Below are positions 2,183-64,000 of a DNA stretch of 64,000 nucleotides, in pieces. Under the pieces are notes generated by a model that searched no databases, had not been told where the DNA came from, and was given only the letters and a program-made list of their open reading frames with translations. Within the stretch, counting starts at the first letter, position 1; every line of letters begins with the position of its first letter. Origin of the DNA: Oscillospiraceae bacterium (GTDB taxonomy: Bacteria; Bacillota; Clostridia; Oscillospirales; Oscillospiraceae); assembly GCA_045631645.1 (NCBI GenBank), contig JAZQVC010000038.1, positions 1,856-65,855 of the forward strand, written 5' to 3'. A program made the position numbers and the translations under genes.

Positions 2183-3013
2183 ATGCGATTTGTTACTCTC
2201 GTTGAAAATAGCTGCACCGAGGGCTTTGGATGCGCCCACGGGCTTTCCATATACATCGAAACCGCCGTGCACAAAATTCTTTTTGACGCAGGTCCTGACG
2301 GGGAGCTGCTTCTTTCCAACGCTGCAAAGCTTGGAATAGACCTCAGTGAAGTTGATATTGCCATAATCTCCCATGGACACTATGATCACACAGGAGGCTT
2401 GAGCGCTTTTCTTAATATTAATAGTTCCGCTAAAATCTATATTCACACTTTGGCCTACACTCGTCGCCATTACGCAGCAGAAAAAAGCGGTTGGCGCTAT
2501 ATAGGTCCGGACATGGAGCTTCTTAATAATAATTCCCATCGTATGGTTCTGACGGAAGATTTCTTATCAATTGATGATGAGCTTTCCCTTTTTGCCTGCA
2601 TACCCACCGCCGATTTTCTTCCCGACGGAAACAGTACGCTCTATGAAGAGATCGAAGGCGAGATTATTCCTGACAGCTTCTGTCATGAGCAAAATCTTAT
2701 AGTCAGAGAGGGAAATAAAACATTTCTTTTTGCCGGCTGTGCACACCGTGGAATAATAAATATAATTCGTGGTTTCACGAATATTGTCTGTTCTCACCCA
2801 GATTATATTATTTCAGGCTTCCATCTAACAAATCCCGGACTTAAAATCGATGCTCCTGACGGGCTGGTCTATAATGTAGGAAACGAACTGGATAAATTCC
2901 CCTGCATTTATTACACGGGTCACTGCACAGGCGAAAAGCCCTATGCTAAACTTAAAACCATACTGGGAGACAGAATCAATACTCTCAAGAGCGGCATCGG
3001 CGAAACCATATGA
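2183..3013 (+). CDS. MBL-fold metallo-hydrolase
   Basis: HxHxDH motif (ISHGHYDHTGG). Start moved to the ATG 7 nt after AGGAGG; the tracked ORF begins earlier at 2144. Confidence 0.75.
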   Translation: MRFVTLVENSCTEGFGCAHGLSIYIETAVHKILFDAGPDGELLLSNAAKLGIDLSEVDIAIISHGHYDHTGGLSAFLNINSSAKIYIHTLAYTRRHYAAEKSGWRYIGPDMELLNNNSHRMVLTEDFLSIDDELSLFACIPTADFLPDGNSTLYEEIEGEIIPDSFCHEQNLIVREGNKTFLFAGCAHRGIINIIRGFTNIVCSHPDYIISGFHLTNPGLKIDAPDGLVYNVGNELDKFPCIYYTGHCTGEKPYAKLKTILGDRINTLKSGIGETI

Positions 3014-52757: not shown

Positions 52758-52903
52758 TATACTATTTTAAATGATTGCATTCAGTATAAAGAATACACAA
52801 AGTGGAATGTCAAGCAAATTTCAAAATAATTATACCATATATTTATTTTTTATGTTACAATGAAGTTTAATGATTAAAAATTAAGTGTTTAGGAGAATAT
52901 AAA

Positions 52904-54496
52904 ATGATTACAGTTGAAAATTTGGGTCTGCAGTACGGCGGTCAGGTTCTTTTTAATCAGGTTGACCTCCAGTTCACCCGCGGCAATTGCTACGGCATAA
53001 TCGGTGCAAACGGAGCAGGCAAATCCACCTTCCTCAAAATTCTTTCCGGCGAGGTTGAGTCCACCAATGGACACGTATACATCGACCCCAAGGCGAGAAT
53101 GAGCGTACTGAAGCAGAATCAGGGCATGTATGACGATTATCCTGTTCTCGAAACCGTTATCATGGGCAACATGAAGCTTTATGAATGCGGTAAGGAAAAA
53201 GACGCAATTTACGAAAAAGAGGATTTTTCCGACGAAGACGGCATCCGCGCCGCAGAGCTTGAGGAGCTTTACGCAGAGCTCGGCGGTTGGGAAGCTGAAT
53301 CCGATGCAAGCAAAATTCTGCAGGGTCTTGGAATTCCCACCGAGTTCCACTATACTCAGATGGCATCTATGGATCCCCGCCAGAAGGTTAAGGTTCTTCT
53401 CGCTCAAGCTCTTTTCGGTAATCCCGATATAATCCTTCTTGACGAGCCCACCAACAACCTTGACCTTGCCAGCGTTGTTTGGCTCGAAGACTTCCTGATG
53501 GACTATGATGGCACCGTTCTGGTTGTCAGCCATGACCGCTACTTCCTCAACAATGTCTGCACCCATATCGTTGACATCGACTACGGCAAAATCAAGATGT
53601 ATGTCGGTAACTACGACTTCTGGTATGAGTCCAGCCAGCTGATTCAGAAGCTTATTAAGGATCAGAACAAAAAGGCTCAGCAGAAAATTGAGGAACTGCA
53701 GAACTTCATTGCTCGCTTCTCTGCAAACAAGAGTAAATCCCGTCAGGCAACCAGCCGCAGAAAGCTCATTGACAAAATCAGCGTTGAAGAACTTCCTGCC
53801 TCCTCCCGTCGCTATCCCTGGGTTGGTTTCAAGGCAGAACGCGAGCCCGGCAAAGACAGACTTTTTGTTGAGGGTATCAGCAAAACCGTTGACGGAGTGA
53901 AGGTTCTCAATAATGTCTCCTTCATTATGGGTAAGGAAGACAAAATTGCCATCATAGGCTCCAATGAGATCGCCATCACCACTCTCTTCAAAATTCTTGC
54001 AGGAGAAATTGAGCCCGACGAAGGCACCGTTAAATGGGGCGTTTCCACCACCCAGAGTTATTTCCCCAAAGATCATGAACATCTTTTCGCCGGTTGCGAG
54101 TACAACCTCATCGATTGGATGCGTCAGTTCTCCGTTGATAAGCGCGAAAGCTATCTGCGTACCTTCCTGGGCCGTATGCTCTTCTCCGGCGACGAGGTTT
54201 ACAAGAATGTAAGCGTTCTCTCCGGTGGTGAGAAGGTTCGCTGCATGCTCAGCAAGATTATGCTTGAAGGCAGCAGCGTACTTATGTTCGACCAGCCCAC
54301 CAACCATCTTGACCTTGAAAGCGTTCAGGCTCTCAACAACGGTATGGATGCCTTCCCCTTTAACATTATTTTCACCAGCCACGACCATCAGCTTACTCAG
54401 ACCGTAGCTAACCGCATTATTGAAATAACCCCCGACGGCATCATCGACAGAATGATGAGCTACGATGATTATATGAATCTCTACAAAGCAGAATAA
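52904..54496 (+). CDS. ABC-F family ATPase (two NBDs, no TM domain)
   Basis: GANGAGKST and a second NBD, LSGGEK signatures and an inter-domain linker. 530 aa. Confidence 0.9.
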   Translation: MITVENLGLQYGGQVLFNQVDLQFTRGNCYGIIGANGAGKSTFLKILSGEVESTNGHVYIDPKARMSVLKQNQGMYDDYPVLETVIMGNMKLYECGKEKDAIYEKEDFSDEDGIRAAELEELYAELGGWEAESDASKILQGLGIPTEFHYTQMASMDPRQKVKVLLAQALFGNPDIILLDEPTNNLDLASVVWLEDFLMDYDGTVLVVSHDRYFLNNVCTHIVDIDYGKIKMYVGNYDFWYESSQLIQKLIKDQNKKAQQKIEELQNFIARFSANKSKSRQATSRRKLIDKISVEELPASSRRYPWVGFKAEREPGKDRLFVEGISKTVDGVKVLNNVSFIMGKEDKIAIIGSNEIAITTLFKILAGEIEPDEGTVKWGVSTTQSYFPKDHEHLFAGCEYNLIDWMRQFSVDKRESYLRTFLGRMLFSGDEVYKNVSVLSGGEKVRCMLSKIMLEGSSVLMFDQPTNHLDLESVQALNNGMDAFPFNIIFTSHDHQLTQTVANRIIEITPDGIIDRMMSYDDYMNLYKAE

Positions 54497-54500
54497 AGAT

Positions 54501-54542
54501 AAAAACCCGATATACCTTCGATAAAGGTATATCGGTTTTTTT
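54501..54542. terminator. Bidirectional intrinsic terminator
   Basis: cccgatatacctt-cgata-aaggtatatcgg flanked by A5 and T7. Confidence 0.85.
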
Positions 54543-55675
54543 CAAAACTTTCCTTTTGCTCTGAAAGCGCGAAGAGAATTCAATGTGAGAAGAATTGCTA
54601 TGCCGCTGTCAGCAAAAACAGCAAACCAGAGAGAGCTGATTCCAAACGCTCCGAGGATTATAACAACAAGTTTCAGCAAAACTGTTGCAATAATATTTTC
54701 AATGGCAATTCGTCTTGCCTTGGTGGATATTTGATGGGCAATGGCAAATCTTTCCTCGCCGCCAATCACAACAAGGTCAGCAGCCAGTTCCCTTTTTTCA
54801 TACTCATCAAGGAAAACAATGCTCTCCCCATGTCTGGAACTGTTTCGAGGACTGAGTTTATCTGTTGCGACGCGGTCAATAACGCTTGGGCCATGGAAGA
54901 AAACACCTCTTCCGGCGGCAGCTGCTATACCTGCAAAGTAAGCCATAGGAACGGAAATGACAACCGCGCAGGGGCAAGCCAGAACAAGGAAGGTCAGCGC
55001 TCTGCAAACTCCATCGCGGAGTGAGGTTTCCCCAAGAAGAGGAAGGGCTACAGCAATCAAGACAGCGCAGGCAAGAACAATGGGGGTATATATCTTTGCA
55101 AAGCGGGTTATAAAACGCTCACTTTTTGCCTTTTCCTGCCCTATGGGCGCATAAGAGCCGGTGACAGACGCGATTTTCCGTCTGCTATGGCGTATAGCGC
55201 AATCCTGAAATGTTTCTCCAACGCGATAAAGGAACATTACCGCGGCAGCTTCATGATAATTGCCGATTATGAATGCAGCAGCCGCTGCAACACTCATGAG
55301 AATATATTCGTTAAAATATTTTCCCTTGAAAAGATTTTTTACTGCAGAAATAAGAACATCATATCCTGCTATGATGGTAACAGCCGCAAAGAGAATTATC
55401 TCAATTACTGCATTATCATGGAGAAATCCCTCAAAAATCCAGTGGCTGAAGAAAAGAATTGCAGAGACAATAAGTCTTGCGACCATCATCTTATCTACTC
55501 CGTGATGATGCTGTATTTCATGATGGTGGCAGCAGCAGGTGCCGTCATCATGGTGGTGATGAGCATGTCCCTCGCCGTCACATTCCTCCGCGTGGCTATG
55601 ATGAGTGTGCTCATGCTCGTGCTTATATTCATTTTCATGTTCATGACTATGATGGTGTTTATGCAAATTTATCAC
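54542..55675 (-). CDS. P1B-type heavy-metal ATPase homolog lacking the A, P and N domains (membrane core plus His-rich N-terminus)
   Basis: 377 aa. His-rich tail (HKHHHSHEHENEYKHEHEHTHHSH...HAHHHH...CCCHHH). P1B membrane motifs are kept: LMSVAAAAAFIIGNYHEAAAVMFLYRVGE, FAKIYTP, LACPCAVVISVP, ADLVV..., NSLRA. TGES, DKTGT and GDGxNDxP are absent. Confidence 0.75.
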   Translation of the reverse strand: MINLHKHHHSHEHENEYKHEHEHTHHSHAEECDGEGHAHHHHDDGTCCCHHHEIQHHHGVDKMMVARLIVSAILFFSHWIFEGFLHDNAVIEIILFAAVTIIAGYDVLISAVKNLFKGKYFNEYILMSVAAAAAFIIGNYHEAAAVMFLYRVGETFQDCAIRHSRRKIASVTGSYAPIGQEKAKSERFITRFAKIYTPIVLACAVLIAVALPLLGETSLRDGVCRALTFLVLACPCAVVISVPMAYFAGIAAAAGRGVFFHGPSVIDRVATDKLSPRNSSRHGESIVFLDEYEKRELAADLVVIGGEERFAIAHQISTKARRIAIENIIATVLLKLVVIILGAFGISSLWFAVFADSGIAILLTLNSLRAFRAKGKF

Positions 55676-55728
55676 CTCAACAAAAAAGACAATTCATCCC
55701 CGCAAAAAGCTGCGGGGATGAAATAATG

Positions 55729-56325
55729 TTACTTCTTCAAAACCTCACAGAGAAGACTGATATGATTTTCCATTCTGCGTGTTATATCAAAATCGGCTCC
55801 ATGTATACACCAGTTATAACATACGCCTCTGAATATATCAAAAATATATTCAACAATTTGTTTTGATTTTATGTCAGTCTTCAATTCTCCCGCTTTCTTT
55901 CCCTCTTCGATCACATCATAGATCAGGTACTGCATCGGGCGGGCAAGGGCAAACCATTCATTGGTCGGATGGAAAAGAACTCTCATAACATCTATGCCCG
56001 TCTGCACATTCAGCTGGGCATAATGATACGCAAATATATGAAGCTTTTCTATGGAAGTTTTTCCTGCGAATTCGCTTTCAACGGCATCATGTATGTACTT
56101 ATCGCCGTGTTCATATATGCTTTTAAGTATATCAATTTTGGACTTGTAGCAGTTATAGAAAGTGCCGATAGGAATATTGGCCTCAGCGCAAATATCACGT
56201 ACGGTGGTACCCTGAAAACCCTTTTCGCTCATAAGCTGCATTGCTTTATCGAAAATAATCTTCTGGGTTTCAGAGGTCTTTCTATATGCTCTTTTTGTCT
56301 TTTCATTCATGACGTTTTTTTCCAT
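55729..56325 (-). CDS. TetR/AcrR-family transcriptional regulator
   Basis: N-terminal HTH (FDKAMQLMSEKGFQGTTVRDICAEANIPIGTFYNCYKSK). Start at MEKNV, 7 nt after GGAG. Confidence 0.85.
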   Translation of the reverse strand: MEKNVMNEKTKRAYRKTSETQKIIFDKAMQLMSEKGFQGTTVRDICAEANIPIGTFYNCYKSKIDILKSIYEHGDKYIHDAVESEFAGKTSIEKLHIFAYHYAQLNVQTGIDVMRVLFHPTNEWFALARPMQYLIYDVIEEGKKAGELKTDIKSKQIVEYIFDIFRGVCYNWCIHGADFDITRRMENHISLLCEVLKK

Positions 56326-56397
56326 TACCATACTCCGGAATAAAAATAACAAAAGATATAAAAAGACCTTTTACACTTTAACGGTAAAAGGTCTTTT

Positions 56398-56474
56398 TGG
56401 CACCCTCGACTGGATTCGAACCAGCGGCACATGGCGTCGGAGGCCATTGCTCTATCCATCTGAGCTACGAGGGC
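56398..56474 (-). tRNA. tRNA-Arg (anticodon CCG), CCA encoded
   Basis: Minus strand GCCCTCGTAGCTCAGATGGATAGAGCAATGGCCTCCGACGCCATGTGCCGCTGGTTCGAATCCAGTCGAGGGTGCCA. Anticodon loop CTCCGAC. A hairpin at 56362-56397 lies downstream. Confidence 0.9.
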
Positions 56475-58914: not shown

Positions 58915-58968
58915 GAATAAGCACCTCCCCCGAAAATTAATTATAAAGCGGTGCTACCGCCTGCAAAA

Positions 58969-60204
58969 TCAGATGCCCAGATACTCCATCTGCTCGGCGC
59001 TGAGAGTATCAATAGTGATACCGAGAGTTTCAAGCTTTTTGAAAGCAACAGCCCAATCGGTCTCTTTGGGAACAGCAATAACGTCAACGGGAACATTGCC
59101 ACGGTTATCAACGAGATACTTTGCGGAAAGAGCCTGAATTGCAAAGCTCATATCCATAATCTCTGCGGGATGTCCGTCACCTGCTGCCAGATTGACAATT
59201 CGGCCTTCGCCAAGAACATAGACGGTGTTGCCGGTGGGCAGAACATAGGCATCAATATTATTGCGTGCTTCATAAGTGGATACGGCATAGTTTCTGAGGC
59301 AGGCCATATCAACTTCAACATCGAAGTGACCGGCATTGGTCAGAATAGCGCCGTTTTTCATTTTTGCAAAATGTCTCTCGGTGATAACACAGTCGCAGCC
59401 GGTAACGGTGCAGAAAATATCACCTCTTGCGGCAGCTTCGTCCATAGTCATAACGGTGAAGCCGTCCATATGTGCCTCGATTGCCTTGACGGGGTCAACC
59501 TCGGTGACGATGACGCGGGCACCAAGACCCTTTGCGCGCATTGCAACACCCTTGCCGCACCAACCGTAACCTGCAACAACAACTTCCTTGCCGGCAACAA
59601 TAAGATTGGTAGTACGATTAATTGCATCGAATACAGACTGACCGGTGCCGTAGCGATTATCGAAAAGATGCTTGCAGTCAGCCTCATTAACCATGACCAT
59701 GGGGAACTTAAGAGTTCCTGCCTTGGCCATTGCCTTCAAACGAAGAATACCGGTTGTGGTCTCCTCGCAGCCGCCGATTACATCGGGGATAAGATGGGGG
59801 AATTCGGTATGCATCATATGAACAAGGTCGCCACCATCATCGATAATGATGTTGGGACCCCACTCCAGAGCTGCACGAATATCAGCCTCATACTGCTCCA
59901 TGGTTACACCGTGATGGGCGAAAACCTCAAGACCGCCTGCAACAAGTGCTGCGCAGACATCATCCTGAGTGGAAAGAGGGTTGGATCCGGTTACGCGCAT
60001 CTGTGCGCCGCCCATTGCCATAACGCGGCAAAGATAAGCGGTTTTTGCCTCAAGATGGACGGAAAGGGTACATTTCAGACCAGCAAAGGGCTTGGTCTTC
60101 TCAAATTCCTCAGCGATAGCGCGGAGGATGGGCATATTGTTTTCAACCCACTTTATTTTCTTTTCGCCTGCGGGGGCGAGATTGATATCGGTAATACTGC
60201 TCAT
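58969..60204 (-). CDS. ahcY: Adenosylhomocysteinase
   Basis: 411 aa: DDGGDL, EETTTG and GYGWCGKG NAD motif. Confidence 0.95.
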   Translation of the reverse strand: MSSITDINLAPAGEKKIKWVENNMPILRAIAEEFEKTKPFAGLKCTLSVHLEAKTAYLCRVMAMGGAQMRVTGSNPLSTQDDVCAALVAGGLEVFAHHGVTMEQYEADIRAALEWGPNIIIDDGGDLVHMMHTEFPHLIPDVIGGCEETTTGILRLKAMAKAGTLKFPMVMVNEADCKHLFDNRYGTGQSVFDAINRTTNLIVAGKEVVVAGYGWCGKGVAMRAKGLGARVIVTEVDPVKAIEAHMDGFTVMTMDEAAARGDIFCTVTGCDCVITERHFAKMKNGAILTNAGHFDVEVDMACLRNYAVSTYEARNNIDAYVLPTGNTVYVLGEGRIVNLAAGDGHPAEIMDMSFAIQALSAKYLVDNRGNVPVDVIAVPKETDWAVAFKKLETLGITIDTLSAEQMEYLGI

Positions 60205-60291
60205 GTTAATTCCTCTCTTTATTTACAAATTAATTTAACAAAATAAGACTATTTTATTTTATCACCGCAGTATTACAAAAACAACCTTAAT

Positions 60292-63280: not shown

Positions 63281-64000
63281 GTGGAAAGCAAATATAAAAT
63301 CAGCGGAATGCACTGCGCTGCCTGCTCCGCTGCCATAGAGCGCTTTTTAGGAAAGCAAAACGGCATTGAATATGTTTCCGTCAACCTTGCCACAGAGAAA
63401 ATGCTGGTAAAATACGATGAATCCATATATTCCTGCTCCGATATAGAAGCACTTGTTGAAAAACTGGGTTATGGCTGCATGGAACAGTCCGCAGCTGAAG
63501 CTGCCGCTCTGAAAGCGAAAATGCAGGAGAAGGAAGCTGCCGACAAAGCTCTGCAAAAGCAGATTAAAAACGCCCTTTTTGCCCTGTGCTTTGCCATTCC
63601 CCTTCTTTATGTTTCCATGTTTCACATGATGGGCGCTCCCCTGCCAGAGTTTATAGATATGCATCGCTCACCCGTTGGGCATGTTATTGTGCAACTTCTG
63701 CTCACGCTTCCCATTCTCATTTGCGGACGCAGCTTTTTCACAAGCGGCTTCCCCTCTCTTTTCCGACTTCATCCCAATATGGACTCCCTCGTTGCAGTGG
63801 GCACAGGCGCTGCATTTCTATTCAGCATTTATGTTAGCATAAGAGTGTTCATCGGAGACAACCAATATATCCATTCTCTATGCTTTGAATCCTCCGCCAT
63901 TGTTATCGCCTTTGTTATGCTTGGAAAGGCTCTTGAAGCTCGCAGCAAAAAGCGCACAGGAGATGCCATAGCCCGTCTTACAGAGCTTGCGCCTGAGACT
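63281..64000 (+). CDS. copA: Copper-translocating P1B-type ATPase CopA (3' end beyond the window)
   Basis: Read manually, because this open frame is not in the ORF track. GTG after GGAGGG, then an HMA domain SGMHCAACSAAIERF, then GRSFFTSGF...PNMDSLVAVGTGAAF...FESSAIVIAFVMLGKALEARSKKRTGDAI. Confidence 0.9.
   Translation, partial: MESKYKISGMHCAACSAAIERFLGKQNGIEYVSVNLATEKMLVKYDESIYSCSDIEALVEKLGYGCMEQSAAEAAALKAKMQEKEAADKALQKQIKNALFALCFAIPLLYVSMFHMMGAPLPEFIDMHRSPVGHVIVQLLLTLPILICGRSFFTSGFPSLFRLHPNMDSLVAVGTGAAFLFSIYVSIRVFIGDNQYIHSLCFESSAIVIAFVMLGKALEARSKKRTGDAIARLTELAPET

Follow-up and report, generated by a model that had tools for sequence, protein, structure and literature searches.

A conserved family of membrane-only P1B-2 ATPase derivatives in Oscillospiraceae, possibly acting as ATP-independent metal translocators

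Introduction

It is the phospho-enzyme cycle that defines P-type ATPases, and their membrane domain is usually seen as subordinate to the cytoplasmic headpiece. Whether such a membrane core can bind, gate or translocate ions alone is the question raised by a gene at positions 54542-55675 (minus strand) of a stretch of 64,000 nucleotides from an Oscillospiraceae bacterium (GenBank assembly GCA_045631645.1, contig JAZQVC010000038.1, positions 1,856 to 65,855 of the forward strand), which as a whole is here called the window. The gene is an open reading frame (ORF) of 377 codons, counted from a GTG at 55675, and its product is a derivative of CadA/ZntA-type (P1B-2) metal pumps, belonging to a family that has no headpiece and retains an ion path and a metal site under strong selection. 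Residue numbers below follow this frame, and related loci and proteins carry our own L and P identifiers where they need to be told apart.

Results

Protein architecture

When the short protein was compared with all PDB sequences using phmmer, it aligned with ZntA of Shigella sonnei (4umv; E=1.2e-32) in three blocks which together cover all eight membrane helices. Query residues 69-171 align with ZntA 132-231 (helices MA, MB, M1 and M2), residues 180-269 with ZntA 338-427 (M3, and M4 with its CPC site), and residues 326-373 with ZntA 684-731 (M5 and M6); ZntA 232-337, which form the actuator (A) domain, and 428-683, which form the phosphorylation (P) and nucleotide-binding (N) domains, have no counterpart in the query. 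On the minus strand of the window, MA, MB, M1 and M2 (residues 61-172) occupy positions 55160-55495, M3 and M4 (residues 186-262) positions 54890-55120, and M5 and M6 (residues 319-377) positions 54545-54721. The A domain is missing at the M2-M3 connector (residues 166-185; 55121-55180), and the P and N domains at the M4-M5 linker (residues 263-318; 54722-54889). Joint alignment with 70 full-length relatives puts numbers on both gaps: the M2-M3 span (residues 165-190) has 25 aa where the relatives have a median of 123 aa, and the M4-M5 span (residues 262-320) has 58 aa where they have 258 aa. The motifs TGES, DKTGT, HP and GDGxNDxP are all carried by the full-length relatives, and none occurs in the short protein.

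Domain models confirm the same two gaps. The Pfam model E1-E2_ATPase is matched only over positions 106-180 of 181, with nothing earlier, and no HAD/Hydrolase domain is matched by Pfam; scores against the NCBIfam P1B models (108-134 bits) lie far under the cut-offs (313-1240) because two thirds of each model are unmatched. The significant Pfam and NCBIfam matches are to P-type ATPase models only, with none to the CDF, ZIP, NRAMP or NiCoT families; the remaining matches (E>=0.014) are far under cut-offs and include no metal-transporter family. An AlphaFold2 model consists of eight long helices, with a mean per-residue confidence score (pLDDT) of 72.8 that rises to 80-96 in the helices and is low in the loops and in the N-terminal tail (<50). 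Its top PDB matches by Foldseek are ZntA (4umw and 4umv), CadA (7qbz) and CopA structures.

The signature of the P1B-2 subgroup is present. C234-P235-C236 (54968-54976) in M4, K335 (54671-54673) in M5 and D356-S-G in M6 (D356 at 54608-54610, within FADSG) align with C392/C394, K693 and D714 of ZntA, in which the two cysteines and the aspartate are metal ligands and the lysine is a built-in counter-ion (PMC10246665). Of the P domain, the M4-M5 linker keeps only the stalk-proximal ends, GVFFHG..IDRVA at its beginning and AADLVVI at its end; the part in between differs across the family in both sequence and length.

An initial annotation of this DNA had aligned the ORF by eye along the whole P1B membrane core and had found neither an actuator domain nor TGES in the M2-M3 loop; the three blocks on ZntA, the length of the first span and the confinement of the E1-E2_ATPase match to the end of the model bear out both statements. 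Its account of the M4-M5 loop holds in so far as the N domain and GDGxNDxP are absent. The hexapeptide TDKLSP, which it took for a reduced DKTGT, is by contrast no such relic: TDK (residues 271-273) is out of register with DKTGT, its aspartate following VIDRV by 3 residues rather than by the 9 found in ZntA and in the A-domain-less relatives described below, and its position is variable, and the motif unconserved, in the family. The predicted protein is thus an intact P1B membrane core without A, P and N domains. As these domains are missing, there can be no phospho-enzyme (Post-Albers) cycle and ATP-driven transport is impossible, which agrees with the earlier statement that the protein cannot hydrolyse ATP. 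By descent and fold it belongs with the P1B-2 ATPases, yet it should not be filed as an ATPase.

Family conservation and selection

The architecture is shared by a large family. A search of 5.8 billion proteins recovered more than 110 clusters (at 90% identity) of proteins of 340-385 aa, which are 44-91% identical to the query over its whole length. Those clusters that bear a source name come from Oscillospiraceae or Ruminococcaceae metagenome-assembled genomes (MAGs), and most clusters bear none; the named members are all entered as 'hypothetical protein', and no precomputed Pfam domain is recorded for any cluster. With one genome taken per species, 15 GTDB species carry the short form (L001-L015), nearly all of them Oscillospiraceae MAGs from gut or rumen.

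Retention of the CPC site and of a His/Cys-rich N-terminus, pointed out for this gene in the initial annotation, extends to the family as a whole. Among 112 homologues of 330-400 aa, ACPC is present in 111, FADSG in 110 and the tail motif DG[ST]C[CS]C in 109; DKTG is found in none. The cytoplasmic tail (residues 1-60; 55496-55675) is about 60 aa long and holds about 20 histidines and 5 cysteines, and its motif CDGEGHxHHHHxDGSCCC (with the serine left open, CDGEGHxHHHHxDGxCCC; residues 32-49, 55529-55582) contains seven positions, G36, H37, D44, G45, C47, C49 and H52, that are invariant in an alignment of 37 sequences. Also invariant in this alignment are C234-P235-C236 in M4, N327 and K335 in M5, D356-S-G in M6 and a YTP motif in M3, together with E123, M127 and E142, which align with the ion-entry residues E184, M187 and E202 of ZntA. 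An extension of M2, AIRxSRRKI, and the stalk-proximal P-domain elements are conserved in the family as well.

Across eight syntenic orthologues the median ratio of non-synonymous to synonymous substitution rates (dN/dS) is about 0.07, an approximate value given that dS is saturated (>1) in most pairs. For this reason the closest pair was added: 136 synonymous and 43 non-synonymous changes separate the window gene from its counterpart in L087 (dN 0.051, dS 0.93, dN/dS 0.055). The neighbouring genes for a TetR regulator (0.05), an AEC permease (0.08) and MgtE (0.04) fall in the same range, and the M4-M5 linker taken alone is relaxed (0.16-0.21). By these estimates the short gene is under purifying selection, and the predicted metal ligands, the counter-ion lysine and the entry-funnel residues on the cytoplasmic side are preserved under it.

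Two of the family loci call for comment. The ORF of 1138 aa in L011, which suggests a fusion, is artefactual: an antisense frame is open there in DNA of 61% GC, and the real gene starts with MSEHHEHE. L011 (titled Pseudobutyrivibrio sp.) and L012 (titled Ruminococcus bicirculans) have 61-63% GC and near-identical gene content, which is odd for their titles, and these contigs are likely to be mis-binned.

Origin of the short proteins

The full-length relatives that score highest with the family profile have intact TGES, CPC, DKTGT, HP and GDGxND motifs, and in several of them an unstructured His/Cys-rich N-terminus, with no ferredoxin-like domain, directly precedes MA; the tail of the short family was therefore probably inherited. 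Between the two forms stand six proteins of 524-575 aa (L016, L017, P0119, P0121, P0122 and P0124) in which the A domain is replaced by a connector of 26-36 aa and a P/N region of 207-261 aa is still present; the genes lie at 5986-7713 in L016 (575 aa) and at 4153-5838 in L017 (561 aa). In these forms DKTGT is replaced by FDKAGAL, FDKPGAL, FDESVAP, FDKSGIF or FDKSALL, and GDGxNDxP by GDPIMDEQ, and between L016 and L017 the P/N region is 50% identical as compared with 47% for the membrane part. They are probably pseudo-ATPases, and would make up a second undescribed class.

Synteny ties these proteins to the short family. The genes of L016 and L017 directly follow divergent PFK and FBA genes, the same slot that the short gene holds in L081, L082 and L085, with FBA proteins that are 75-79% identical; AlgI/DltD-like genes found downstream in the window also follow the L016 gene. 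In a neighbour-joining tree built on 260 columns of the membrane core, the short family is monophyletic with 95% bootstrap support. Synteny and tree suggest an order of events in which loss of the A domain was followed by catalytic decay, and this in turn by deletion of the P/N region.

Comparable proteins occur elsewhere. An exhaustive profile search of 1.84 billion representative proteins, which gave 1829 homologues at E<=1e-30, recovered further short, membrane-only P1B proteins of 290-400 aa outside the window family, namely the single-block proteins P0134, P0150, P0191, P0209, P0220, P0250 and P0253, and the 400-aa P0147, which keeps the C-terminal half of the P domain; among them are the pairs P0150/P0269, P0191/P0209 and P0220/P0147. 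A profile search started from these other short forms was dominated by full-length ATPases of 632 aa. P0253 (319 aa) clusters with P0185, a full-length protein, at 100% bootstrap support; the two are 56-63% identical in three membrane blocks, and the two junctions are the same as in the window family. As P0253 thus derives from a different full-length lineage, the membrane-only architecture arose at least twice. P0134, P0191, P0209 and P0250 have 0-4 aa before MA, and so almost no N-terminal tail.

Genomic context and regulation

In the window and in L002-L008 the gene order is AhcY, MgtE, AEC permease, tRNA-Arg(CCG), TetR, short gene and a convergent ABC-F gene. The TetR-family gene (55729-56352, minus strand; TetR_N, E=3.4e-11) lies directly upstream of the short gene in these loci, as it does in L086. 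At seven other loci (L009, L013, L015, L081, L082, L083 and L085) an ArsR/SmtB-family gene (Pfam HTH_5, E ~1e-15) overlaps the start codon of the short gene, and at five (L079, L080, L084/L010, L011 and L012) no regulator is adjacent. The ArsR sequences of L009, L013 and L015 all contain a KLCGD segment, and those of L009 and L015 also have an N-terminal C-x-C and LCVCE, which we take to be the ligand pattern of the Cd/Pb/Zn sensor CadC (alpha3N-type). Two loci show the exchange within one gene order: L083 reads MgtE, AEC, ArsR (2657-3004), short gene, and L086 reads MgtE, AEC, tRNA-Arg, TetR (2317-2910), short gene, with a TetR protein 70% identical to that of the window. Thus the regulator slot appears to be conserved and the regulator family exchanged, CadC-like ArsR in some lineages and TetR in others. 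TetR-family metal sensors such as SczA exist.

The initial annotation had the short gene following the TetR gene on the same strand. That arrangement stands, whereas the simple operon that it implies does not, since a GC-rich hairpin with a 13-bp stem and a T-rich tail (55693-55722, minus strand) follows the TetR stop codon and precedes the ribosome-binding site of the short gene. The hairpin is kept in 8 of 8 orthologous loci, with a compensatory change in L008. We considered whether it might be the operator of the TetR protein, which is unlikely: in L086 the 70%-identical TetR gene is followed by an unrelated, AT-rich inverted repeat (at about 2930-2970) in the same place, so that a terminator or attenuator is the better reading. 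The inverted repeat between the TetR gene and the short gene is possibly a read-through terminator or attenuator; downstream of the hairpin there is no room for a promoter, and transcription probably reads through it from upstream.

Upstream of the short gene, Rfam (E<=1) gave the tRNA-Arg and two sub-threshold matches to small RNAs near the tRNA, and no riboswitch or known RNA leader. At the loci examined no control of the Zur/Fur type was seen, and in about 20 loci no conserved neighbour gene encodes a domain resembling A, P or N.

Gene start and other features of the window

The GTG at 55675, from which the initial annotation counted its 377-aa protein, was not upheld as the start codon. 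It lies inside a Shine-Dalgarno sequence, GAGGTGA (55672-55678, minus strand), which stands 5 nt upstream of a TTG at 55666 and is conserved at orthologous loci; an independent gene call on the 91%-identical gene of L087 begins at the equivalent of this TTG. The true start is thus probably TTG 55666, which would give a protein of 374 aa. The strong terminator noted at the end of the gene was recovered as a bidirectional intrinsic terminator with a 13-bp stem and a T run (54507-54535, assigned to neither strand), which is common to the short gene and the convergent ABC-F gene (52904-54496, plus strand).

Directly upstream of the TetR gene lies tRNA-Arg(CCG) (56398-56474, minus strand), which is followed by a terminator-like hairpin. 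The canonical CopA reported from 63281 was also recovered, as the N-terminus of a CopA-type P1B-1 ATPase (63281-64000, plus strand) comprising a GMHCAACSAAIE metal-binding domain (GMHCAAC) and then MA/MB before the gene leaves the window end; at least one conventional P1B pump is thus encoded in this genome as well. Long ORFs antisense to ABC-F (52889-54388, minus strand), to AhcY (58951-60246, plus strand) and to the short gene (55187-55726, plus strand) are best regarded as shadow ORFs.

Discussion

What might a P1B core do without its headpiece? We lean, with modest confidence, towards an ATP-independent translocator for metals of the Zn/Cd/Pb class that serves metal tolerance. In such a scheme a divalent metal of this class would be bound first on the His/Cys tail and then at the membrane site, and would be moved across the membrane without ATP, either by a carrier coupled to the proton gradient or by a facilitator. 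Transport of this kind would form part of a metal-tolerance response. The placement in tolerance draws on the regulators: as in many relatives the short gene is coupled in translation to that of a CadC-like ArsR sensor, expression would be expected at metal excess, and would point to export or sequestration rather than to acquisition. A wider proposal, which we entertain only tentatively and hold to be rather less probable, is that the P1B core has become an autonomous, ATP-independent carrier or channel (for example a tail-fed, proton-coupled Zn/Cd/Pb exporter) that arose stepwise and more than once.

Several observations weigh against these proposals. ZntA-type P1B-2 pumps work as electrogenic uniporters and do not counter-transport protons (PMC10246665), so that proton-coupled export would be a new property of the core. 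An unmodified uniporter core would favour influx at a negative-inside potential, a poor fit with induction by excess metal, and the conservation of the metal site suits roles confined to binding equally well. The TetR protein of the window has weak FadR/AcrR-like similarity in its C-terminal part and resembles no recognized metal sensor, its gene is parted from the short gene by the terminator-like hairpin, and at five loci of the family no regulator is adjacent. With regard to stepwise descent, the tree places the A-domain-less forms as sister of the short family with a bootstrap value of 42% only.

The strongest competitor dispenses with transport. The protein would be a membrane-anchored buffer or sensor, whose tail and membrane site either take up excess metal like a tethered metallothionein (compare SmtB-SmtA) or signal metal status to a second protein. 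The tail, with its wealth of histidine and cysteine and its invariant motif, would suit this role; sequestration genes, no less than pumps, are classic targets of ArsR/SmtB-type regulators, so that linkage to ArsR at seven loci accords with it too; and with the cytoplasmic domains gone, there is no known driver for alternating access. We nevertheless think it unlikely, if worth serious consideration, since the invariance of E123, M127, E142 and the counter-ion Lys335 among proteins of 44-91% identity is more than binding seems to need, a low-copy membrane protein that binds stoichiometrically would be a weak buffer, and the nearly tail-free P0134, P0191, P0209 and P0250 indicate that a tail is not what the membrane-only forms have in common. 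Less probable again is a passive importer or channel, driven by the membrane potential, for essential metal ions, Zn2+ or Co2+ for instance. An electrogenic uniporter relieved of gating by ATP would leave a path with an inward thermodynamic preference, and the gene of the window clade lies near that of the Mg2+ channel MgtE with no ArsR gene present. Yet the coupling to CadC-like ArsR at seven loci predicts induction by an excess of thiophilic metal, which would be harmful for an importer, no Zur/Fur-type control was seen, and the Cys-rich site and tail supply ligands of the Cd/Pb/Zn class that are typical of detoxification.

Catalysis might also have been moved to other polypeptides, with soluble A and/or P/N proteins docking in trans or the core pairing with a full-length P1B pump such as the CopA encoded from 63281. 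Soluble P-type-ATPase-like proteins exist in archaea, and the conserved GVFFHG..IDRVA, AADLVVI and AIRxSRRKI elements could form a docking surface. Such a split pump is very improbable in our estimation: no gene for a suitable partner is conserved nearby in the roughly 20 loci examined, the middle of the M4-M5 linker is variable in both length and sequence, and the A-domain-less forms are already without catalytic motifs, so that catalysis was apparently abandoned before the P/N region was deleted. Finally, the initial annotation had allowed for a recently decayed gene whose two deletions stayed in frame by chance. Nothing beyond the missing domains speaks for such a pseudogene, and it is refuted by an architecture shared among more than 110 clusters down to 44% identity, by dN/dS values of 0.055-0.07, by the invariant functional residues and by the conserved ribosome-binding site and terminator, which together leave it a negligible probability.

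Should the tentative proposal of an autonomous carrier or channel prove true, the membrane core of P-type ATPases would be a self-sufficient alternating-access module. With about 310 structured residues, the short proteins are small and convenient both for testing the autonomy of the core and for structures of the P1B ion pathway. The A-domain-less intermediates and the second independent origin offer a rare stepwise view of the remodelling of a primary pump, and a 'hypothetical protein' that is widespread among Oscillospiraceae of gut and rumen is placed in a context of metal homeostasis.

Comparison with known systems

Searches of the full-text literature turned up no account of P1B proteins that are membrane-only or lack the A domain; subscription journals were thinly covered in them and TCDB and InterPro lay outside, so that a prior description is possible. 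A 2023 review devoted to unsolved problems of the field yielded, as far as it was searched, nothing on truncated or degenerate pumps like these. Among characterized proteins the closest are ZntA and CadA (4umv, 4umw and 7qbz), with which the short protein shares the eight helices MA, MB and M1-M6, the CPC motif of M4, the lysine of M5, the aspartate of M6 and the entry residues. Unlike them it has no A domain with TGES, no P domain with DKTGT and GDGxNDxP, and no N domain. Its unstructured His/Cys-rich N-terminus resembles that of its closest clostridial full-length relatives. Nearest to it in sequence are the A-domain-less relatives, to which it is about 40% identical, and it has in common with them the M6 motif LW(F/L)AVFADSG, a similar tail, a lack of catalytic motifs and, in some short members, the slot after PFK and FBA; it differs in that about 58 aa stand where they have a P/N region of 207-261 aa.

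The overlap of an ArsR gene with the start of the short gene in seven relatives recalls the cadC-cadA operon of Firmicutes. The likeness has its limits: the regulator in the window is a TetR protein with an intervening hairpin, the cadCA-type ArsR/SmtB arrangement is absent from the window, and the 'pump' partner is without ATPase domains. By function alone, a further analogy may be drawn with ArsB of the ArsAB arsenite pump, a membrane carrier that can work without its ATPase as a secondary transporter and that is under the control of an ArsR-family repressor. The two are unrelated in sequence and fold. ArsB and its ATPase were never one fused protein; the short protein, by contrast, lost its ATPase domains by deletion from a single polypeptide.

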